From: Candidatus Pacearchaeota archaeon
Lineage (GTDB): Archaea; Nanobdellota; Nanobdellia; Pacearchaeales; GW2011-AR1
Length of the DNA stretch: 40,932 nucleotides
Direction of reading: 5' to 3'
NCBI GenBank assembly: GCA_018304055.1
Contig: JAGVWY010000036.1
Coordinates: 1 to 40,932 of the forward strand
Shown here: piece after piece, positions 3,693-40,427 of the stretch
Numbering within the stretch: position 1 is the stretch's first letter
Layout of the letters: every line of letters begins with the position of its first letter
The notes under the pieces: model-generated
Told to the model about the DNA's origin: nothing
Database searches by the model: none
Seen by the model: the letters and a program-made list of their open reading frames with translations, nothing else
Position numbers and translations under genes: made by a program

Positions 3693-4220
3693 ATGAAAAA
3701 TAAACATTCAGCTCATGAAGGAATGAAGCCAGAAATTATTACTCCTTATATTCCAGATGCCACTGAAAAAAAGCGATTATATGAGCTGGCTTTAAAAGAG
3801 ATACATGAGAGAGTCAAAGGAGTTGATAGCCTTGTTCCACGAATGGCAACAGTATCTTCTATTTTAAAAAATATCATACCTTATTATTCTTGGTGCGGAT
3901 TTTATTTTGCTGAAGAGAATGAAATGATTGTAGGGCCTTATCAAGGAACTGCAGCATGTGCGAATATTGCTTATTCAGGTGTTTGCGGAACTGCAGCTAA
4001 GAATAAGAAAACAGTAGTTGTTCCGAATGTTCATGAATTTCCAGGGCATATAACATGCGATACTAGATCAAATTCTGAAATCGTCGTCCCTATTATTGAG
4101 GATAATATGGTTATTGCAGTGTTGGATGTTGACTCTGTATTATTAAACGCATTTGATGACATTGATAAGAAATTTTTAGAAGAAAAAATAATACCTATTT
4201 TACTAGAGGCAACTAATTAA
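3693..4220 (+). CDS. msrC: GAF-domain protein, free methionine-R-sulfoxide reductase-like
   Basis: WCGFY, GPYQG..AC, GVCGTAA, VHEFPGHITCD, SEIVVP, VLDVDS motifs; ATG 3693 preferred over TTG 3678. Confidence 0.8.
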   Translation: MKNKHSAHEGMKPEIITPYIPDATEKKRLYELALKEIHERVKGVDSLVPRMATVSSILKNIIPYYSWCGFYFAEENEMIVGPYQGTAACANIAYSGVCGTAAKNKKTVVVPNVHEFPGHITCDTRSNSEIVVPIIEDNMVIAVLDVDSVLLNAFDDIDKKFLEEKIIPILLEATN

Positions 4221-4222
4221 AC
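4208..4222 (+). repeat. Target-site duplication, left copy (GGCAACTAATTAAAC); right copy 5169-5183
   Basis: Exact 15-bp direct repeat abutting both IS ends. Confidence 0.9.
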
Positions 4223-5168
4223 TGTCTTATCCCGAAATTATTTCATAAGGACAATATAATTGTTCCTATGAAACTGACAAGATCTAAGTTAATTGAGACG
4301 CTTAGAAAGCTAAATAATGGAGAAACAGTTTACCAAGCAAGAAAGATAGCTGGTGTAAGCGTGAGAAGAGTTTATCAAGTGAAGGAGGCATTTGAAAACA
4401 AAGGGGAGATTCTAGAAATAGGAAATAACGTCGGAAGGCCATTGATACCATTTGAAAATTGGGAGATTGAAATAGTAAAAGAAGCTTACGATAGATACAG
4501 AGTTTCAGCAGACACTTTAGAAAGATTAATTGACAGGGACTACAAAAGGCATATAGGTCATAACAGGATTCATAAGATTCTTGTATATCTTGATTATGCC
4601 AAGAAAAAGTCGTTCAAAGACATCAGAAAAAAGAAATGGAAGAGATATGAAAGAAGGCATTCTTTAACTGCCGTTCATATTGATTGGCATTATTTCAGGG
4701 GAAATTGGGTTTTTGGTGTTGAAGATGATGCGAGTAGAAAACTTCTTGCTATGATTGAGTCTAAAAACGAATCAACTGACAATTCAATTTCAGAAATGGA
4801 AATTGCTCTGAAACACGGGCCAATAAAACAATGTATAAGTGATCATGGCTCAACATTCACAAGCAATTTTGTCAACGCTAAATCAAGATTTAGAGAGTAT
4901 TTAATATTAAAAGGGATAAAACCAATACTTTGCAGAGTTCGCCATCCAAGGAGTAATGGAAAAATAGAGAAATGGTTCCAAGCTTACAACAAACATCGCG
5001 AAGCTTTTAAAACAACTGAAGAATTTTTGTTTTGGTACAATGATTTAAAACCACATAAAGCTTTAAAATTTGATGAACTTGAAACTCCATCACAAGCTTT
5101 CATAAGAAAACTCAGAAAATGAAAACTCGAAATAAATCAGCGTTAGGAAATATTAATGGGATACAACA
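4223..5168 (+). mobile_element. IS481-family insertion sequence (946 bp)
   Basis: TGT...ACA ends; imperfect terminal IRs (TGTCTTATCCCGAAATTATTTC vs revcomp TGTTGTATCCCATTAATATTTC); 15-bp flanking direct repeat. Confidence 0.9.
4268..5122 (+). CDS. IS481-family transposase (HTH + rve integrase core)
   Basis: HIDW, DDASR, SDHG, NGKIEKW DDE motifs. Confidence 0.9.
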   Translation: MKLTRSKLIETLRKLNNGETVYQARKIAGVSVRRVYQVKEAFENKGEILEIGNNVGRPLIPFENWEIEIVKEAYDRYRVSADTLERLIDRDYKRHIGHNRIHKILVYLDYAKKKSFKDIRKKKWKRYERRHSLTAVHIDWHYFRGNWVFGVEDDASRKLLAMIESKNESTDNSISEMEIALKHGPIKQCISDHGSTFTSNFVNAKSRFREYLILKGIKPILCRVRHPRSNGKIEKWFQAYNKHREAFKTTEEFLFWYNDLKPHKALKFDELETPSQAFIRKLRK

Positions 5169-32153: not shown

Positions 32154-35100
32154 ATGGTTTTTAAGAGGTACATAAAAAAAGGAGGAAGGGTTTACGGGCC
32201 TTATTATTATGAATCCTATAGAGATAAGAATGGAGAGGTAAGAAAAAGATATGTTGGAACAAAGCCTTTAAAAAGTGGTGTAAATACTTCTAAAAAATAT
32301 TCTTTGTTATTTCTTTTAGCAGTTGTTTTTGCCATTGTTTTTTTAGTTATTTTGAAAACAGATATTGCTATATCTGGAAAAGTTATAAGTGGTGTAACCC
32401 AAACTCCCTTTTCTTTAGGAGGATTTTCAAAACTTTCTGGATATGTTGTTTCTGAAATAGCTGAAGAAGAGATAGTTGAGGAATTTGAGGTGAGAGAGAA
32501 AAATGCCAAGCTTAAAATAAAAAAACCGAAAGAGGTTTTAGGAAATAAAATATCAAAAAACAAAAATCATAGGATGGAATACGAAAGAATTGGATATGAA
32601 GTAAACGAAGGGTTAATCCTATATTTTGATATGTTGAATTATACAGAGTATATTGATGAATCTGCTTTAGTGATAAGAAAAGAAAATGAAAAAAGTAAAG
32701 GAAAAAATGAAAGTATTAATGAAAGTGAAGAATTGAAAGAAAGCAATTTTACAATTCCTATAAATGAGACATTAATTAATGATACTATAACCAATGAAAC
32801 TGAAAGTAATGAGAGTGAAAATAGCATTAATAATGAAACAATAATTGAAAATCCTGAAATAGGAGACAAAAATGAAACAGATAAAGAGGGAGATAAATTA
32901 AAAGAAGATGAAGAAAAGTTAGATGATAACAAAGGAAAAGAAGAGGATATTAATAAGGAAACTGATGAAAGCAAAAAAGGAAATAAAATAACCGGAATTT
33001 TTGGAGGATTTTTGGGTATTGTGGGAAGAGTTATTGAAAATGTTAATGATGAAAGTAGTGATAAAAATATCAGTTTAGATAAAGAAAAAGGGGTTGATGA
33101 GGATAAAGATAACAAGGAAGATAAGAAAGAAAATAAGAAAGAAATTGATAAAAAAAATGAAAGCGAAGAAAATGATGAAAAGGATAAAGATAATGAAAGC
33201 AAGGAAGGTGTAACAGATGAAGAAAATATTGACAACGAGGAAAAAGAGCAGAAAAGGAATGAGGATGAAAAGGAGAAGGATAATAAGGAGAAAATTAAGG
33301 GGCTTACATTAGAAGAGATAAAAAAAGGATTAGAAAATTTAAGTGAAGAATCGTTAAAAGGAATAGAGGATAAAGCATTAATTGTTTTGAATGATAGTGA
33401 GTTTAATATTACAGTGAATGAAAGTGAAGCTAGAAGATATAATGCTGATTTTAAATGGGGTTACAAAGTAGGATTAAAAGATAAACAATTAATGGCTAAA
33501 ATTGAGGTAACTAGTGAGGAATTAATCAGCATTTATGATAATCATACTCTAAGAGTTGGGAGAAGTCTTCTTTCATTCAAAGATTTGGTTAATTCTGGAT
33601 ATAATGTTAGATTTGAAAGGCCTTCTTTAGATATGGGAATTTATGACAAGAAAATTGTAAATGAAACTATTAATGAAACACTAATTAACGAGACAATTGT
33701 TAACGAGACTTTAGAGAATGTAACGATAATAAATAAGACATTAGTTAACGAAACAATAATAAATGAAACTCTGATAAATAAAACTGTTAATGAGTCATTA
33801 GAGAATGTTACTTCGGTTAATGAAACGATTATCAATGAGACTTTCATTAATGAAACGTTTGCTAACAAAACAATAATAAATGAAACTGAAGAAGAGAAAG
33901 AGATTGGTAAAGAAAAGAAAGAAGAAAAAAAAGAAGAAAAGGAGGAAAAGAAAAATGAAACAATTATCGAGACAATAATAAATGAGACTATTATAGAAGA
34001 AGATAAACAGATAGATAAAAGAAATGAAACTAAAGAGATTGGAGAAGAAATTAAAAAAGATATAGAAAATAAAACTGAAGAGAAAGAAGAAGTGAAAGAG
34101 GGAGAATGTTATGATAATATTACTAGAATATTTACTGACAAAGGATGGAGGTATTTTAAAGATTTAGAAGAAGATGATAAAGTCATGACATTAAATCAAG
34201 AAACTGGAGAACAAGAATGGCAATTGCCTTATGAGAAACAGGATTTTGAGGGAGATAAAGAAATGTATAGTATTAAGACTATTGATAGTAATGGCAGAGA
34301 AGGAGAATTAATTGTTTCAGAGAAGCATAAAGTTTATGTTAATTTGGAGGGAATTGATTCTATTGTAAATCCATCTTCATATAATGTAATTAAATTGCCT
34401 TCAAAATCTTCTGGCTTTATTTCTTTTAATAACCTGGAGAAAGCAGATTTTGACAATTCTAACTTATCTTGGGATATTCTTAACCAGACAACTGAAAATA
34501 TTTTTTCTTTTGGAAAATGCTCAGAGTCAGCAAAATCTTCATCATTGGTTATTAATGCTCTTTGTTCAGATTTTGAGAAGGAAGCTAATTTACCGTTAGC
34601 GAGTCCTTTGGGTTTTGAAACTGTATCAACTCCTTGTTCTTTAATAAATTTCTCAAGTCTTTTATCAACATTTTCATCTGACAGAAATCTAATCGAGCGG
34701 GACGCTGAATTGGACATTGTCTCTACCTCTCATCAAACTGGCTGCATAATGCAAGGCTGCTTTAATATGATTTTCGTTGATAGAGGGGAATGCTTCAAGA
34801 ATCTCTTTAATGGGTATTCCTGCTTCGAGCATTTCCAAAATTTGCCAGACCATAACCCTTGTACCTTTGAAAGTAGGCTTGCCACCACAAATCTCCGTGT
34901 CTGCAACAAGGTACTCATTAATTTCAACTCTCATTGTAATAATAAAAATAGTAAGGAATTATATAAACTTTTCTCCTTACAACCAATAACTGAGGTTTAT
35001 ACAGATTATAGGAATAGAAAAGATATTTATTTCTTAGACGATAAAAATAATCCTATAAAAATTTTAGAAATTGAGAAAGTTCCTTATGATGGAAGAATGT

Positions 35101-38100
35101 ATGATGTTGATGTTGAAAATGATGTGGTTTTAGTTGAAAGAAACGGATTTGTTGTATGGAGCGGGAATAGTGATTTAAAAAAAGAGGAAAAAGCAGAACC
35201 TGTTGAAGAAAAAAAGGAAGAAATAAAAGAAGAAAAGGAGAAAAAACAGGAAGAGAAATCAGAAGAGACAGCAAGTTCATCAGAAGAACCTGATGAACCT
35301 GTAATAACAGGAAATGTTGTTAGATTTTTTGGATTAATAGGAAGAGCTATTACTGGATTTGTAATAGCTAACGAAGTTGAAGATGTTTATTATAATAATA
35401 CGATAACTGTTTACATTGAAAGAGATTTTAGCAATGAAAACGTTAGTGTTGGAGAAACGATTTATTTAGATCCTACATTAATTATAGAGATAACAAAAGC
35501 AGAGCATTTAGATGAAAATAGAAGTTTTATTCGAGATATTTATGATTATGTAAAAGCAAAAGATGATAACTGGACAACTATTCCTCAAAGCCAATTTGTC
35601 CGCGTTACCTTTCAAAAAAATTTAACAAAAAGCAATGATATAACAATTTATGCGAGGTATGCAAATTATAGTAATAATATAAGTAATAATTCTGATAATA
35701 CAAACGAAAGTAATAATACAGGGAATGAAACGAGCAATACAAGTAATGAAATAAATATAAACAATAAAGGTGGAGAGATTATTGTTTATAGATTTAATGA
35801 TACTGAAGAAATTGCACGATTTACAAATATCACAAAAGAAGACTGGTACAAGATTTATTTAACTAATTTAAATGAAAATGAATCATACAATGTTTTTGAT
35901 TTACAGATTATAGGAGACATTGTGATTGGAGAAAATAATTCAGGAAATGAAAGCGGAAATTTAACAGGAAATCAGACAGGAAATGAAACAGGTAATGGAA
36001 CAGCGAATGTAACAGCAGCAGGCATTGAATTTGATTATGTTGTGGATCCTACGAATTATAATATTGTATTGGTTGAATCAACGAATACTGTTGGTTTGTA
36101 TAGTTCCATAGCCATAGATTCTAATGATGGAGTTCATATCTCTCATCATAAAAGCTTAAACGAATTAAGGTACTGCAATAACACTGCATCAGATGGAAGC
36201 TGGAGCTGTACTGTTGCTAAGACAACTAATTTTATAGGATATTATAGTTCTATAGCTATTGATTTAAATAATAAAGTCCATATTTCTCACCAAGACAATT
36301 GGAATTTTGATTTATACTACTGCAATAATACAGCAAGTGATGGCTCTTGGAGCTGTATTGCCATTGAATCAACGAATAATGTTGGATATGATACTTCTAT
36401 AGCCATAGACTCTAATAATAAAATACACATTTCTCATCGAGACACAACTAATAGCAACCTTCGATACTGCAATAATACTGCAAGTGATGGCTCATGGAGC
36501 TGTATTGCAGTTGATTCAGGAGGAATTTATTCTTCTATAGCCATAGATTCTAATAATAAAGTCCATATTTCTCATCATGAGGGTATTGCCGCTGATTTAA
36601 GATACTGCAATAATACTGCAAGTGATGGCTCATGGAGCTGTACTGCTATAGATATCGATTCTGTAGGATATTATTCTTCTATAGCCATAGATTCAAACAA
36701 TAAAGTCCATATCTCTCATCAAGATCCTAGTCCGGTGCTTGACCTTAGATACTGCAATAATACTGCAAGTGATGGTTTATGGAGCTGTATTACCATTGAA
36801 TCAACGAATAATGTTGGTTATTTAACTTCTCTTGCAATAGATTCTAATGATGACATTCACATTTCTCACTACGAGGATATTGCGAGCAGTAGTTCTGATA
36901 GGTTACGCTACTGCAATAATACAGCAAGTGATGGCAGTTGGAGTTGCACTGAAATAGCGAGCAATACTTCAATTACTGCCTCTTCTTTTGGCAGGGGATT
37001 AGCCATAAAAAAAGGAAGATTAATGGATACAACAAGTTATTCTACTTATGTTCATGGAAGTTTTTACAATACCAGCGGAGGAGATTTATACTACTGGAAC
37101 ATGAGCGGAACATGGCCGGCATCTAGTGATTCTATTCCGAAGATTAATTTCACTGAACCAACTCCAGTAAATGCAACTTCAACTGTAAATACAAGTTTTA
37201 TTGTCAATGTTTCAATTGTTGAACCTGATTTAAATGAAGTAATTTATAATTGGAATGGGACGAATTACACTTTGTATAATGATAGCTTGGTATTATTAAT
37301 GAATTTTGATAATGTTTCTGCACTTGGTGAAAATGATACATTAGTCGCTGATCTAAGCGGTTATGGAAATAATGGGACCGGAAATAGTTCCAGCACTGTC
37401 TGGTTATCTACTGGAAAATATGGCGGAGTTTTCAATTTTAGCGGAAATAATAATAGTTTTATAAATATAAGTAATACTACTGCATTTCCTTCTGATAGTA
37501 TAACAGTAGCATTTTGGGTTAATGCAAGCTCAAGCGGAGGTGCGGATGGAATAATTTCTTATGCTGCGTCAAGTGATAATGAATTCCTTTTATTTGATAC
37601 TACAAGTATTGATGTGTATGTAAGTAGCACATCTGCTGCAGGTACTGTAAGCATTAATGATAATCTTTGGCATCATATTACTGTGATTTGGTCTGGCGCT
37701 ACTAATCGTTCATTAACTTATAAAGACGGAATATTAGAAGATAATTTAAGCTTAGCTCCATCAAGCAATATAGGTAGAGATGGTTGTTTAGTACTTGGTC
37801 AGGATCAGGATTCAGTTTGTGGTGGTTTTCAAAATAGTCAGGCATTTTATGGTCACATGGATAATCTCATGATTTTTAATAGAAGCCTTTCTTCAGACGA
37901 AGTCTATCAACTTTATGCTTCAAATTTATATCGTTATAATACAACACAATGGTATCTTTTAGTGAATCAGAGCAAGAATGCAAGTGCAGTATTAGAAGAT
38001 GGAACATATACATATTTTGCATGGGCAAATGATACTTCAGGAAATGATAACATAACAGAAATAAGAACAATATATGTTAATCATAGTGATGTTCCAAAAA

Positions 38101-40427
38101 TATATTTTGTGAATTTACAAAATGTTTCTGTAAATTCTTCTTTTAAAATAAATGAATCCAGATTTGGAAATGGAAGTGAGTTGCAGATTTCTGATCAATT
38201 TGGTATAAGTGTTGCAAACCTTGGAGATTTAGATGGAGATGGAGTACAAGATATTGTTGTTGGAGCGAATGGAGTTGATGATGGAGGAGGTGCTGATGGA
38301 GCTGTCTGGATTTTATTTTTAAACACTTCAGGAGGTGTTAAAAACTCATATAAAATAAACGAATCCAGATTTGGAAATGGAAATGAATTAAGTAGTGATC
38401 AATTTGGACATAGTGTTGCAAACCTTGGAGATTTAGATGGAGATGGAGTACAAGATATTGTTGTTGGAGAATGGTTAAATGATGATGGAGGAACTGATGA
38501 TGGAGCTGTCTGGATTCTTTTCTTAAACACTTCTGGAGGAGTTCAAAACTCCTATAAAATAAACGAGTCTAGTCTCGGAGGTAATGTATTAAGCAGCGAT
38601 GCTTTTGGAAGTGCGGTTGCAAACCTTGGAGATTTAGATGGAGATGGAGTACAAGATATTGTTGTTGGTGAATATGGTAATGATGACGGAGGAAGCAGTA
38701 ACGGAGCTGTCTGGATTTTATTTTTAAACACTTCAGGAGGTGTTAAAAACTCATATAAAATAAACGAATCAAGGTTTGGAAACGGAAATGAGTTAAGTAG
38801 TGATAATTTTGGATATAGAGTTGCAAACCTTGGGGATTTAGATAGAGATGGTGTTAATGATACTATTGTTGGAGAATATCTTGATGATGCTGCTGGTGGA
38901 GTTAATGGAATAGATAACGGAGCTGCATGGATTTTATTTTTAAACACTTCAGGAGGTGTTAAAAACTCATATAAAATAAACGAATCAAGGTTTGGAAACG
39001 GAAATGAATTAAGTAGTGATTTTTTTGGATATAGTATATCAAACCTTGGAGATTTAGATGGAGATGGAGTACAAGATATTGTTGTTGGTGAATATGGTAA
39101 TGATGACGGAGGATCAACCAATGGTGCTGTCTGGCTGTTATTTCTTCAAACTTTTCCTGATTATAGAACTGTAACAAAAAATACAAGTCTAATTGTTAAT
39201 GTAAGCATTGCTGATACAAATTTAAGAGATGTTATTTGGAATTGGAATGGGACGAATTATACGCTTTATAATGATTCTTTAATTATATATTATAATTTTG
39301 ATAATAGAAGTGATCTTGGAGAAAATGACACTTATGTTTTAGATGTTTCAGGAACTGGAAATAATGGGACTGTTCATAATGGAAGTTGGAATGTAAGTGG
39401 TAGATATGGTGGAGCGTTTTATTTTAACTTAAGTAGGTCGCACAGTAATACTTACATTCGTCCACCAGGAGGATATAATATTGTTAATAAAACTGTAACT
39501 GCATGGATCAAAAGAGATAATGCTATTAGTTGGGATCAGATTGCGGGATTATGTAGTGGTAATTGGTATTTTGCTGTTAGATCTGGTGATGATCTTATTA
39601 TCTCGTATAATAATAGAACATTTTCACAAACTACCTGCGCTAAATTTAGTATTACTGATACTAACTGGCATTTTGTTGGAGCAACTGTTTATAATAATGA
39701 GACTGATGGAGTTAATGTAACGCTTTATTTAGATGATAAAATTGCAAGTTGTTCATCTACTACTGGAATTACAGAAACCTCGCAAACAATACAAATTGGC
39801 AGTTTCATAAGTGGTTGCGGAGTAACAGATGCAGTTTTCAATGGAACAATAGATGAATTTATGTTTTGGAATACGACGCTTCCTCCTGAAATTGTTCAGC
39901 AGTTTTACTTTTCAAATCTTTACAAATTTAATACAACACAATGGTATCTTCTTGTTAATCAATCCAAGAATGCAACTAATGGATTAGATGAAGGAAATTA
40001 TAGTTATTTTTCATGGGTTAATGATACTTCAGGAAATACAAACATGACAGAAATTAGATATTTTAGAACTGCAAACCCTTCTGGAAAGAAATTTGCTATA
40101 ACAAATTCTTCGAATGATGTTGTGGCGAGCATTGATGATACAGGAGATTTATTTTTACAAGGAAATATAGCTCAAAGTCAAAGTAGTCTTACTGCTGAAA
40201 AAAATTCATTTATTGTAACTAATTCAACTAATGATGTTGTGAGTTATATTACTAATACAGGATATTTATTTTTACAGGGAATTATTGGAACTGGATCTGT
40301 AACTACTGGAGTGGCTCCAACAAATCTTGAAATTAGAAATTCAACTAATGATATAGTTGCATTTATTAATAATACTGGAAGTTTGCAGATAATTGGAAAT
40401 TATTATGATAATTATGAAGAGCCGTGA
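32154..40427 (+). CDS. Giant membrane-anchored surface glycoprotein/adhesin with intein, beta-propeller, two LamG domains and FG-GAP repeats
   Basis: Single 2757-aa ORF; N-terminal TM; abundant N-x-S/T sequons; recognisable repeat domains. Confidence 0.85.
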   Translation: MVFKRYIKKGGRVYGPYYYESYRDKNGEVRKRYVGTKPLKSGVNTSKKYSLLFLLAVVFAIVFLVILKTDIAISGKVISGVTQTPFSLGGFSKLSGYVVSEIAEEEIVEEFEVREKNAKLKIKKPKEVLGNKISKNKNHRMEYERIGYEVNEGLILYFDMLNYTEYIDESALVIRKENEKSKGKNESINESEELKESNFTIPINETLINDTITNETESNESENSINNETIIENPEIGDKNETDKEGDKLKEDEEKLDDNKGKEEDINKETDESKKGNKITGIFGGFLGIVGRVIENVNDESSDKNISLDKEKGVDEDKDNKEDKKENKKEIDKKNESEENDEKDKDNESKEGVTDEENIDNEEKEQKRNEDEKEKDNKEKIKGLTLEEIKKGLENLSEESLKGIEDKALIVLNDSEFNITVNESEARRYNADFKWGYKVGLKDKQLMAKIEVTSEELISIYDNHTLRVGRSLLSFKDLVNSGYNVRFERPSLDMGIYDKKIVNETINETLINETIVNETLENVTIINKTLVNETIINETLINKTVNESLENVTSVNETIINETFINETFANKTIINETEEEKEIGKEKKEEKKEEKEEKKNETIIETIINETIIEEDKQIDKRNETKEIGEEIKKDIENKTEEKEEVKEGECYDNITRIFTDKGWRYFKDLEEDDKVMTLNQETGEQEWQLPYEKQDFEGDKEMYSIKTIDSNGREGELIVSEKHKVYVNLEGIDSIVNPSSYNVIKLPSKSSGFISFNNLEKADFDNSNLSWDILNQTTENIFSFGKCSESAKSSSLVINALCSDFEKEANLPLASPLGFETVSTPCSLINFSSLLSTFSSDRNLIERDAELDIVSTSHQTGCIMQGCFNMIFVDRGECFKNLFNGYSCFEHFQNLPDHNPCTFESRLATTNLRVCNKVLINFNSHCNNKNSKELYKLFSLQPITEVYTDYRNRKDIYFLDDKNNPIKILEIEKVPYDGRMYDVDVENDVVLVERNGFVVWSGNSDLKKEEKAEPVEEKKEEIKEEKEKKQEEKSEETASSSEEPDEPVITGNVVRFFGLIGRAITGFVIANEVEDVYYNNTITVYIERDFSNENVSVGETIYLDPTLIIEITKAEHLDENRSFIRDIYDYVKAKDDNWTTIPQSQFVRVTFQKNLTKSNDITIYARYANYSNNISNNSDNTNESNNTGNETSNTSNEININNKGGEIIVYRFNDTEEIARFTNITKEDWYKIYLTNLNENESYNVFDLQIIGDIVIGENNSGNESGNLTGNQTGNETGNGTANVTAAGIEFDYVVDPTNYNIVLVESTNTVGLYSSIAIDSNDGVHISHHKSLNELRYCNNTASDGSWSCTVAKTTNFIGYYSSIAIDLNNKVHISHQDNWNFDLYYCNNTASDGSWSCIAIESTNNVGYDTSIAIDSNNKIHISHRDTTNSNLRYCNNTASDGSWSCIAVDSGGIYSSIAIDSNNKVHISHHEGIAADLRYCNNTASDGSWSCTAIDIDSVGYYSSIAIDSNNKVHISHQDPSPVLDLRYCNNTASDGLWSCITIESTNNVGYLTSLAIDSNDDIHISHYEDIASSSSDRLRYCNNTASDGSWSCTEIASNTSITASSFGRGLAIKKGRLMDTTSYSTYVHGSFYNTSGGDLYYWNMSGTWPASSDSIPKINFTEPTPVNATSTVNTSFIVNVSIVEPDLNEVIYNWNGTNYTLYNDSLVLLMNFDNVSALGENDTLVADLSGYGNNGTGNSSSTVWLSTGKYGGVFNFSGNNNSFINISNTTAFPSDSITVAFWVNASSSGGADGIISYAASSDNEFLLFDTTSIDVYVSSTSAAGTVSINDNLWHHITVIWSGATNRSLTYKDGILEDNLSLAPSSNIGRDGCLVLGQDQDSVCGGFQNSQAFYGHMDNLMIFNRSLSSDEVYQLYASNLYRYNTTQWYLLVNQSKNASAVLEDGTYTYFAWANDTSGNDNITEIRTIYVNHSDVPKIYFVNLQNVSVNSSFKINESRFGNGSELQISDQFGISVANLGDLDGDGVQDIVVGANGVDDGGGADGAVWILFLNTSGGVKNSYKINESRFGNGNELSSDQFGHSVANLGDLDGDGVQDIVVGEWLNDDGGTDDGAVWILFLNTSGGVQNSYKINESSLGGNVLSSDAFGSAVANLGDLDGDGVQDIVVGEYGNDDGGSSNGAVWILFLNTSGGVKNSYKINESRFGNGNELSSDNFGYRVANLGDLDRDGVNDTIVGEYLDDAAGGVNGIDNGAAWILFLNTSGGVKNSYKINESRFGNGNELSSDFFGYSISNLGDLDGDGVQDIVVGEYGNDDGGSTNGAVWLLFLQTFPDYRTVTKNTSLIVNVSIADTNLRDVIWNWNGTNYTLYNDSLIIYYNFDNRSDLGENDTYVLDVSGTGNNGTVHNGSWNVSGRYGGAFYFNLSRSHSNTYIRPPGGYNIVNKTVTAWIKRDNAISWDQIAGLCSGNWYFAVRSGDDLIISYNNRTFSQTTCAKFSITDTNWHFVGATVYNNETDGVNVTLYLDDKIASCSSTTGITETSQTIQIGSFISGCGVTDAVFNGTIDEFMFWNTTLPPEIVQQFYFSNLYKFNTTQWYLLVNQSKNATNGLDEGNYSYFSWVNDTSGNTNMTEIRYFRTANPSGKKFAITNSSNDVVASIDDTGDLFLQGNIAQSQSSLTAEKNSFIVTNSTNDVVSYITNTGYLFLQGIIGTGSVTTGVAPTNLEIRNSTNDIVAFINNTGSLQIIGNYYDNYEEP
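34334..34717 (-). CDS. DUF5615 PIN-like toxin (VapC45-like), nested antisense in the intein
   Basis: RFLSDENV and LITNDEDF motifs; 127 aa; overlaps end of DUF433 gene. Confidence 0.85.
   Translation of the reverse strand: MSNSASRSIRFLSDENVDKRLEKFIKEQGVDTVSKPKGLANGKLASFSKSEQRALITNDEDFADSEHFPKEKIFSVVWLRISQDKLELSKSAFSRLLKEIKPEDFEGNLITLYEDGFTIESIPSKLT
34689..34934 (-). CDS. DUF433 antitoxin (VapB45-like), nested antisense in the intein
   Basis: ICGGKPTFKGTRVMVWQILEMLEAG...EILEAFP.I....IKAALHYA signature. Confidence 0.92.
   Translation of the reverse strand: MRVEINEYLVADTEICGGKPTFKGTRVMVWQILEMLEAGIPIKEILEAFPSINENHIKAALHYAASLMRGRDNVQFSVPLD
34951..34980 (-). promoter_or_regulatory. BRE/TATA promoter of the nested TA operon with flanking inverted repeat
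   Basis: Minus strand GAGAAAAG-TTTATATA (TATA 34967-34960) 26 nt before ATG; GTAAGGA (34951-57)/TCCTTAC (34974-80). Confidence 0.65.
36060..37100 (+). repeat. Beta-propeller repeats (SIAIDSNNKVHISH..LRYCNNTASDGSWSC), about 6 units
   Basis: Direct repeats visible in both DNA and protein. Confidence 0.85.
38140..39150 (+). repeat. Five FG-GAP/integrin-alpha repeats, about 200 bp each
   Basis: FG..VANLGDLDGDGVQDIVVG..GAVWILFL; near-identical DNA copies. Confidence 0.9.

Follow-up and report, generated by a model that had tools for sequence, protein, structure and literature searches.

Contig JAGVWY010000036.1 of a Candidatus Pacearchaeota archaeon, analysed here over its entire 40,932 bp (the window; contig C32 of a 1.23-Mb genome with 29.5% GC), encodes a giant surface-type protein whose gene is interrupted by a predicted intein, and within that intein, on the opposite strand, lie a DUF433 antitoxin gene and a PIN-like DUF5615 toxin gene. 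We consider it probable that these parts form one composite selfish element, namely an intein in a giant surface-protein gene with an antisense toxin-antitoxin (TA) operon, and that the stop-free state of the host reading frame has been selected. The cause proposed for the codon bias of the TA genes, i.e. that TA-synonymous variants are removed when they create stops in the host frame, is held with greater confidence still and is very probably right.

According to this mechanism, a class 1-type intein (Cys1 ... Gly-Asn/Ser, the slash here and below marking a junction) would interrupt the giant surface-protein gene, and its endonuclease slot would hold on the opposite strand a TATA box, then the DUF433 antitoxin gene, then the PIN-like DUF5615 toxin gene. 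During host protein synthesis, ribosomes would have to pass through the reverse complement of the operon, a stretch of about 214 codons, and protein splicing by the intein would remove this meaningless read-through stretch, the absence of a stop codon being the sole demand the host would place on it. Because the host needs the stretch stop-free, TA-synonymous variants that create stops would be removed and a codon signature would be left; the purged variants would be TTA, CTA and TCA in the antitoxin gene, which is in codon register with the host, and NNY/TAN and NNT/CAN junctions in the phase-shifted toxin gene.

Codon signature and selection on the two strands

The antitoxin gene runs codon-for-codon antiparallel to the host gene (positions 32154 and 34932 are both 0 mod 3). 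A first-pass annotation, made from the letters of the window, had noted this register, and had also noted that the seven Leu codons of the antitoxin (CTT, TTG, CTC, CTT, TTG, TTG, CTC) and its three Ser codons (TCT, AGT, AGC) include none of the forbidden codons TTA, CTA and TCA (0/10), in spite of TTA being the dominant Leu codon elsewhere. All of this was borne out. By using 865 open reading frames (ORFs) of the own genome (290,585 codons) as the codon reference, TTA and CTA were found to make up 51.5% and 8.9% of Leu codons and TCA 25.6% of Ser codons, which gives a probability of 6.3e-4 for 0 of 10 (1.5e-3 for Leu alone and 0.41 for Ser alone). Only 1,053 of 217,843 81-codon windows of the reference genes (0.48%) lack the three codons, and the longest registered-phase antisense open run in the reference ORFs is below 150 codons. 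At other residues the antitoxin still uses A-ending codons (21/51 versus 27.9 expected), and therefore the avoidance of TTA, CTA and TCA is specific; the two other antisense frames of the antitoxin contain 3 and 9 stops.

The avoidance continues across the frame shift between the antitoxin and toxin genes. In the toxin phase, host stops arise only at NNY/TAN or NNT/CAN junctions, and the caution of the annotation that stops are inherently rarer here proved apt, the density of antisense stops over the genome being 4.05% per codon versus 7.15% in the registered phase. All five risk residues of the toxin (Q28, Q52, H67, Q83 and Y113) are preceded by codons that avoid a host stop, and synonymous resampling left the toxin part by itself stop-free with a probability of 0.17 and the entire cassette with one of 4.5e-4.

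The own genome holds eight DUF433 matches, of which seven loci were analysed (C59 was left out). The 'MRVEINEY'-type genes on contigs C32, C51, C54, C73 and C75 have no forbidden codon in any of the five cases. In a second subfamily (C38:15636-15833 and C15:19841-20074), TTA is used for 7/8 and 7/7 Leu codons, and 8 and 7 forbidden codons or antisense stops, almost all of them TTA, were counted; these two genes are an internal control demonstrating that the codon bias of the genome does act on DUF433 genes. A comparison set of 39 DUF433 genes was assembled from the seven own-genome genes and 32 loci of a scan with one genome per species. Among 149 Leu and 93 Ser codons, 25 of the 39 genes have no forbidden codon where 80.4 were expected from local usage, and nine of these 25 lie antisense within recognisable inteins; the remaining 14 have 50 versus 38.1 expected. 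The antisense frame over antitoxin and toxin is stop-free in 21 of the 22 zero-group loci with a toxin ORF (simulated means 1.7-7.1), L024 being the one locus with an antisense stop, while the eight 'closed' loci with a toxin ORF have 3-14 stops. The annotation had treated free-standing homologs as the touchstone of its dual-coding claim, and they gave a divided answer: 12 close un-nested copies have no forbidden codon, and 14 more distant homologs do use them. Host-frame stops, which it had named as evidence to the contrary if found in close relatives, occur in no nested relative.

Pairwise comparison of the two frames yielded, for the antitoxin frame, a ratio of nonsynonymous to synonymous substitution (dN/dS) of 0.04-0.38, a proportion of synonymous differences of 0.48-0.72 and a concentration of differences at third codon positions, and for the antisense host frame a dN/dS of about 0.5-3. 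By these alignments, the TA genes are the sequence-constrained reading, and the host reading appears to be constrained only against stops. Silent sites have turned over too often, and therefore inheritance from one stop-free ancestor cannot explain the pattern. Thus, the avoidance is specific to one frame and persists at saturated silent sites under purifying selection on the TA frame, and the annotation's proposal of a dual-coding constraint rather than a disruptive insertion is the best-supported one.

The lack of TTA, CTA and TCA could also be a compositional accident, with the cassette transferred horizontally from a GC-richer donor, its foreign usage retained and the host frame left open by luck. 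The GC content is in line with such a transfer, with 35% in the cassette and 42% in the antitoxin versus 27-33% in the flanks, as is the slight under-use of A-ending codons given above. An accident of this kind would hardly be limited to one frame and carried on across the phase shift between both genes; zero-stop copies are found at locus GC from 27% to 61%, the AT-rich ones with resampling probabilities of no stop of 2.5e-5 to 8e-3 each; near-saturation of the silent sites means that ancestral codons were replaced many times; related lineages of similar GC (L026-L031, L033 and L036) use forbidden codons; and unrelated TA families in the same intein slot avoid stops likewise. We therefore regard the accident as extremely improbable.

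The intein and the nested gene pair

The coordinates and supporting matches are collected in the table.

Features of the host gene, the predicted intein and the antisense cassette (window positions)
Feature	Position	Strand	Basis or remark
Host gene, 2757-aa giant surface-type protein	32154..40427	+	ORF list and Pfam
Intein, 354 aa, from Cys1 (TGT 34107-34109) to terminal Asn (AAT 35166-35168)	34107..35168	+	Alignment, AlphaFold2 (AF2), VIA-align
N-terminal splicing half, blocks A and B, GE/CYDNITRIFTDKGW...SEKHKVYVN	34107..34343	+	HintN hidden Markov model (HMM) 98.7 bits, alignment, AF2
Host-frame read-through of the cassette, 214 codons, stop-free, endonuclease slot	34344..34985	+	Predicted local distance difference test (pLDDT) ~30; dN/dS 0.5-3
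C-terminal splicing half, blocks F and G, ...GRMYDVDVENDVVLVERNGFVVWSGN/S	34986..35168	+	HintC HMM 73.9 bits, alignment, AF2
+1 Ser codon	35169-35171	+	Directly after the terminal Asn of the intein
Cassette as homology unit	34327..34950	-	blastn of 33900-35400 versus the genome
Predicted archaeal TATA box, TTTATATA	34967 to 34960	-	Starts 33 nt upstream of the antitoxin ATG
Antitoxin gene, 81 aa, DUF433/COG2442, codon-registered antiparallel to host	34689..34934	-	Pfam DUF433 8.8e-22, 77.1 bits (cut-off 23.6)
Toxin gene, 127 aa, PIN-like DUF5615	34334..34717	-	Pfam 6.8e-12, 45.7 bits (cut-off 23.8); weak Mut7-C match

The predicted intein was aligned with LAGLIDADG-bearing inteins (21 rows, also used as AF2 input), and C1, W14, H74, G329 and R345 were invariant, so that the class 1 nucleophile Cys1 and the block-B motif S71-E-K-H74 are both present. 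The intein ends in ...VVWSGN/S (35166-35171), with a terminal Asn and a +1 Ser, and the ending ...GN/S/T/C is also seen in TA- and LAGLIDADG-bearing relatives. In the AF2 model, residues 1-83 and 282-355 had a pLDDT above 90, and residues 84-281, the TA read-through, about 30. After trimming of the low-confidence stretch, VIA-align superposed 140 residues on the intein 6zgq_B (Z 19.2, root-mean-square deviation 1.8 A); 85 chains reached Z>=8, and the 50 entries listed were all inteins, bacterial intein-like (BIL) domains or hedgehog Hint domains. The trimmed VIA-align search was used in place of Foldseek, as the untrimmed model gave only half-domain local matches there (best E 9e-4) because of its 200-residue insert. 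Single-sequence AF2 of an 'empty' mini-intein relative, P0069, gave a pLDDT of 33 and was not used.

By tblastn with both Hint halves, the own genome yielded only the window and a 36-aa remnant on contig C75. When P0069 was used as the query against 401 genomes of the phylum, 24 of them proved to contain this Hint type. In 18 regions that were fetched, it lies in ordinary proteins, with LAGLIDADG_3 in frame between the halves, at the same alignment columns, in 17 of the 18; the extein was named by Pfam in three of them (anaerobic ribonucleotide reductase, carbamoyltransferase and epimerase/dehydratase). As modelled, the host residues flanking the TA genes thus form a true intein with a Hint fold.

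The cassette is arranged as expected of a VapBC-like PIN-COG2442 type II system: both domains are present, the antitoxin comes first, the genes overlap (by 29 nt, one phase apart) and a promoter of its own is predicted. The toxin stop codon falls in the block-B codons of the host. Of 18 archaeal cassettes, nested and un-nested alike, 17 have a TATA-like box at a distance of 23-33 nt upstream of the ATG, a spacing that would imply a leaderless or near-leaderless transcript. In the host frame the box of the window is read as part of E-L-Y-K. Such E-L-[FY]-K readings over the box recur, as KELYKLF, DELFKSF and QDLYKSF (window 34950-34975, L016, L021, C75 and others; L numbers denote loci); the motif is the stop-free reading of TATTTAAA/TTATATAAA, and the empty mini-intein P0069 has EYDKFRL aligned there.

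Among 26 homologs of the toxin, residues D14, N16, D59 and F62 never vary and E15 hardly does; the window toxin keeps the four invariant ones. Modelling of the antitoxin-toxin complex predicted binding, with an ipSAE of 0.89 versus 0.00 for the best control, the mark applied being one that 116 of 157 solved complexes and 2 of 215 mismatched pairs reach. Three runs shared at least 98% of contacts, the partner pLDDT was 86, and the interface comprised toxin residues 14-16 and 58-61; binding of the toxin by the antitoxin is thus supported by the models. A sequence search of the Protein Data Bank (PDB) returned no similar complex and no match to the toxin, and 2ga1 only (1.4e-7) to the antitoxin. 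Available parts of two published studies describe PIN-COG2442 (DUF433) pairs as predicted TA systems (PMC2701414) and one such pair, Synechocystis vapBC10, as toxic and neutralisable in E. coli (PMC3834315). Of such pairs, this cyanobacterial one is the only one with demonstrated toxicity and rescue.

A different role for the same two genes has to be considered, in which they are the mobility machinery of the intein, i.e. a DUF433 DNA-binding protein and a PIN-like nuclease acting as an antisense-encoded homing endonuclease, with the same codon constraint. The cargo does include a nuclease-fold protein and a helix-turn-helix protein, antisense homing-endonuclease genes are documented in the same intein slot in the available part of a preprint (bioRxiv 10.1101/2025.01.02.630785), and the inteins do move, as they sit at varying positions in homologous giant proteins with up to three N-C pairs per protein. 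Those differing insertion sites at once speak against site-specific homing. Searches of Pfam and NCBIfam with the cargo returned DUF433, DUF5615 and a weak Mut7-C match only and none of the known homing-endonuclease families (no LAGLIDADG, HNH, VSR, GIY-YIG or EndoVII); the modelled antitoxin covers the conserved acidic residues of the toxin as an inhibitor would; a PIN-COG2442 pair acts as a TA system in E. coli (PMC3834315, as far as its available text goes); and related slots hold two-gene modules of ParE/RelE type, PIN_2 type (with a weak VapB-like neighbour) and DUF2283 type, which are classical TA architectures. A homing role is accordingly judged improbable.

These other TA families were found in a scan of 106 antisense ORFs inside Hint-bearing host frames of relatives, six of which matched TA toxin families: ParE/RelE-type in L046, L048, L060 and L070, and PIN_2 in L049 and L050 (E about 2e-21 to 2e-22). 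In L046, L048, L049, L050 and L070, the toxin ORF and a small neighbour ORF lie downstream of the intein N-half, and in all of these except L050 the C-half was also found, placing the pair between both halves; L060 has the neighbour ORF and a C-half match only. NCBIfam assigned the L046 toxin to RelE_StbE (30.3 bits, cut-off 27.9) and gave a weak VapB match for the L049 neighbour. In L021, an intein other than the DUF433-bearing one has an antisense DUF2283 ORF (8e-11) adjoining a weakly BECR-nuclease-like ORF. By synonymous resampling, the probability of no host stop was 0.015, 0.000 and 0.006 for three codon-registered ParE-type toxins and 0.02-0.4 for PIN_2-type genes in the milder phase. 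The small ORFs beside four of the toxins (L046 2016-2300(-), L048 1007-1306(+), L049 2199-2420(-) and L050 1641-1886(-)) have only 0-3 Tyr, His and Gln among 74-100 residues, these being the sole residues that can create host stops in their phase; the scarcity may mean that the amino acids themselves are avoided, or just that the composition is K/E-rich.

As for the host, its protein has an N-terminal membrane anchor followed by NxT/S-rich repeats, and Pfam places Laminin_G_3 (8e-28; Laminin_G_3/Pentaxin) and FG-GAP (1.6e-23) at residues 1766-2189, downstream of the intein, so the frame across the intein must remain open for them. Three minus-strand ORFs of 75-198 aa (32216..32563, 32639..33235 and 33641..33868) lie opposite K/E- and NET-rich repeats of the host and look like low-complexity shadow frames rather than genes.

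Recurrence of the layout and un-nested copies

The layout recurs beyond the window. The frame antisense to the cassette is open for 1079-2741 codons, often over the whole locus, in L016, L017, L018, L019, L021, L022, L029, L032 and L039. Intein halves flank the cassette by HMM in C32, L016, L018, L021 and L022, and the Pfam family Intein_splicing covers the same antisense cassette above its cut-off of 35.8 bits in L019 (43.6), L029 (80.2), L032 (46.0) and L039 (63.0), where the inteins are canonical and end in ...HNT. The carriers are recorded as Woesearchaeota, Nanoarchaeota, Altiarchaeota, Parcubacteria and Omnitrophota. In the woesearchaeotal L021, three inteins lie within 8.2 kb of one giant gene (464-1411, 3752-4783 and from 7868), and the DUF433-DUF5615 pair is in the middle one.

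When the 355-aa host-frame stretch was searched against 1.84 billion representative proteins, 1957 matches were obtained, and the best 150 of these include 73 proteins with 90 N-C Hint pairs, of which 6 are empty (insert <=15 aa), 77 have inserts of 120-400 aa and 12 hold the same antisense-TA stretch. Inteins occupy differing positions in homologous giant proteins. Most Hint domains of this type in giant proteins (P0045, P0051, P0062, P0070, P0088 and 72 further N-C pairs among the best 150 matches) thus have inserts of 120-400 aa, which are rich in Ser, Leu, Phe and Asn, are dissimilar to that of the window and look like read-throughs of other antisense cargo.

Cassettes also occur outside inteins. 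An un-nested paralog on C51 shares 82.9% identity with the window over 624 nt (34327-34950) and no homology outside by blastn, and therefore the cassette has moved as a unit. Un-nested copies number 12 (C51, C73 and C54 of the own genome, and L014, L015, L020, L023, L024, L025, L034, L037 and L040). In 10 of them the antisense frame spans 217-261 codons from stop to stop, i.e. the cassette and little more, and in C54 and L023 it is open over the antitoxin only (about 125 codons). HMMs of both halves detected no Hint remnant beside the un-nested cassettes, a search that would pass over fully decayed inteins. On C75:4584-5256 (L008 985..2079, plus strand; TA genes L008 1110..1695, minus strand), a decayed sister element is seen: a 364-codon antisense frame runs through an intact DUF433-DUF5615 pair next to the 36-aa block-B remnant (..EELVVREKHEVYIS), the intein has lost its C-terminal half, and the host is broken, the giant-protein ORF upstream finishing in a different frame.

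An antisense frame that stays open without an intein might be a third cassette gene kept for a function of its own, the intein context then being secondary. The extent of the un-nested frame, which covers just the cassette, would fit, as would the 53 proteins among the best 150 library matches that hit only the antisense-TA stretch, 37 of them 200-400 aa long, showing that the frame is often predicted as a protein. Yet this frame has the high dN/dS given above and its amino-acid changes follow TA silent sites, AF2 assigns it a pLDDT of about 30, it has no Pfam match, in un-nested copies it runs into stops no more than a few tens of codons beyond the cassette, and no shared start was seen for it in four own-genome copies. 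Dual coding inflates the antisense dN/dS, which leaves room for a weak constraint on the frame; all told, a third gene is quite improbable, more so than the homing role above.

Several observations count against a splicing composite element whose host frame keeps the operon stop-free, and are weighed together here. The penultimate block-G residue of the intein is Gly in place of the expected His. Gly stands there across the whole Hint lineage, including the LAGLIDADG inteins of NrdD and other enzymes, and inteins without a penultimate His are known to splice; judged from the alignment, the Gly is a lineage trait and no sign of decay. Pfam Intein_splicing (PF14890) scores 15.8 bits on the window, below its gathering cut-off, and 48.5 bits in the relative L064, above it. 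Unusually for an intein, the insertion site falls in a K/E-rich linker of low complexity, and the protein around it is not conserved. That the intein splices and that both strands are expressed, we infer from sequence and models rather than from experiments of our own. In L017 (1511-3760), the frame antisense to the cassette is open for no fewer than 1460 codons, and neither the Hint HMMs nor Pfam detected an intein; by its sequence, the locus may represent nesting without a splicing domain.

On the same side stand the 12 un-nested copies, which have zero forbidden codons just as the nested ones have. A host constraint at the present site cannot explain them; frequent moves between the nested and the free state, or else some other selection, would have to account for them. 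In the DUF433 tree, the nested copies are scattered among the un-nested ones, which takes 9-10 changes of state, and the open-frame trait shows about 5 changes, this tree resting on 84 columns and being poorly resolved. A one-clade origin of the open-frame trait was tried as well and was rejected by the approximately unbiased test (p 1.8e-5), on the same weak 84-column tree with long branches for C38 and C15. With silent sites saturated, the distribution is a sign that the codon constraint belongs to a cassette lineage repeatedly living in inteins and not to the site in the window alone.

Relation to known elements and biological meaning

An antisense gene in an intein slot with an open host frame is already known; TA operons as the cargo appear to be new. 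As described in the available part of the preprint by Gosselin, Arsenault and Gogarten (bioRxiv 10.1101/2025.01.02.630785), antisense LAGLIDADG genes occur in the Synechocystis DnaX and Chloroflexus SpoVR-like inteins, where they were noted first, and antisense LAGLIDADG or VSR-like genes in actinobacteriophage inteins. The window shares with these an intact opposite-strand gene in the endonuclease slot, an open host frame and an in-frame stretch that is unstructured in models. It differs in that the cargo is a two-gene TA operon with its own predicted promoter, from at least four TA families over all loci; in that giant, non-conserved surface proteins, from DPANN archaea and from bacteria of the candidate phyla radiation (CPR) and Omnitrophota, serve as hosts in place of the conserved phage or replication genes of that account; and in that insertion sites vary and cassettes also occur free-standing with a stop-free reverse strand. 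The word 'toxin' is absent from the preprint, and we found no report of TA cargo in inteins in the literature covered, which excluded subscription journals and bioRxiv supplements.

Compared with the PIN-COG2442 VapBC pairs, as far as the available text of PMC2701414 and PMC3834315 describes them, the window likewise has a DUF433 antitoxin upstream of and overlapping a PIN-like toxin, with conserved acidic residues and predicted binding. Its toxin comes from the DUF5615 branch, for which that text gives no tested member, and its operon, unlike theirs, is wholly embedded antisense in a host ORF with a stop-free reverse strand. With the canonical LAGLIDADG inteins of L051-L075 (NrdD, carbamoyltransferase and epimerase/dehydratase), the window intein shares homologous halves around the same slot (C[YF]D..TE.LT..GWK ... 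[TS]P.H ... G[KR].Y.V.VPNH...VRRNG...[WF][CS]GN/[STC]), whereas the former have an in-frame endonuclease in the slot and reside in conserved enzymes.

A selfish gene within a host ORF whose frame is stop-free across it is also found in the ShiLan-type element, an out-of-frame HNH gene inside phage methylase genes (PMC11855218, in the portion available). That element lies on the same strand, out of frame, and has a nuclease cargo and no splicing domain, while here the intein would remove the read-through peptide; L017, with no intein detected, may be closer to ShiLan-type nesting.

For BIL domains, cleavage is for the most part the outcome instead of splicing, and they are not known to carry nested genes. 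BIL entries (PDB 2lwy and 6tmm/6y75) are among the structural matches of the window intein, and like BIL domains it sits in a non-conserved surface-type host, with relatives at variable positions and sometimes several per protein. What sets it apart from them is its alignment with true LAGLIDADG inteins, together with the retained terminal Asn and +1 Ser.

Why a TA operon should reside in an intein can only be inferred. The slot could be a safe harbour in which insertion is silent, and the TA pair could be an addiction module that makes an endonuclease-less intein, or the host allele, hard to lose; we give this account about even odds. More speculative, and at present rather unlikely, is a guild of 'ORF-compatible' mobile TA cassettes, each with promoter, antitoxin, toxin and a stop-free reverse strand, that would shuttle between intergenic sites and intein endonuclease slots in DPANN archaea and CPR bacteria, with addiction replacing homing for the persistence of the intein, selection acting on the cassette lineage itself and giant-gene inteins serving as reservoirs of TA diversity. 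If such a guild exists, selection on the cassette lineage would explain the open antisense frame of the un-nested copies.

Among prokaryotes, few cases of long overlapping genes on opposite strands are known, and such cases often meet with doubt. In the present one, both strands are open over about 600 nt, there is replicated evidence for which strand is sequence-constrained and which is only kept stop-free, and independent TA families repeat the pattern. For annotation, it means that gene callers will miss the TA genes or call the antisense read-through a protein, and that intein surveys confined to in-frame content will score such inteins as holding an unknown domain. Shared by many small archaea and bacteria of groundwater, the layout links two classes of selfish elements, inteins and TA modules, suggesting a route by which endonuclease-less inteins may persist and TA modules may enter coding DNA harmlessly.

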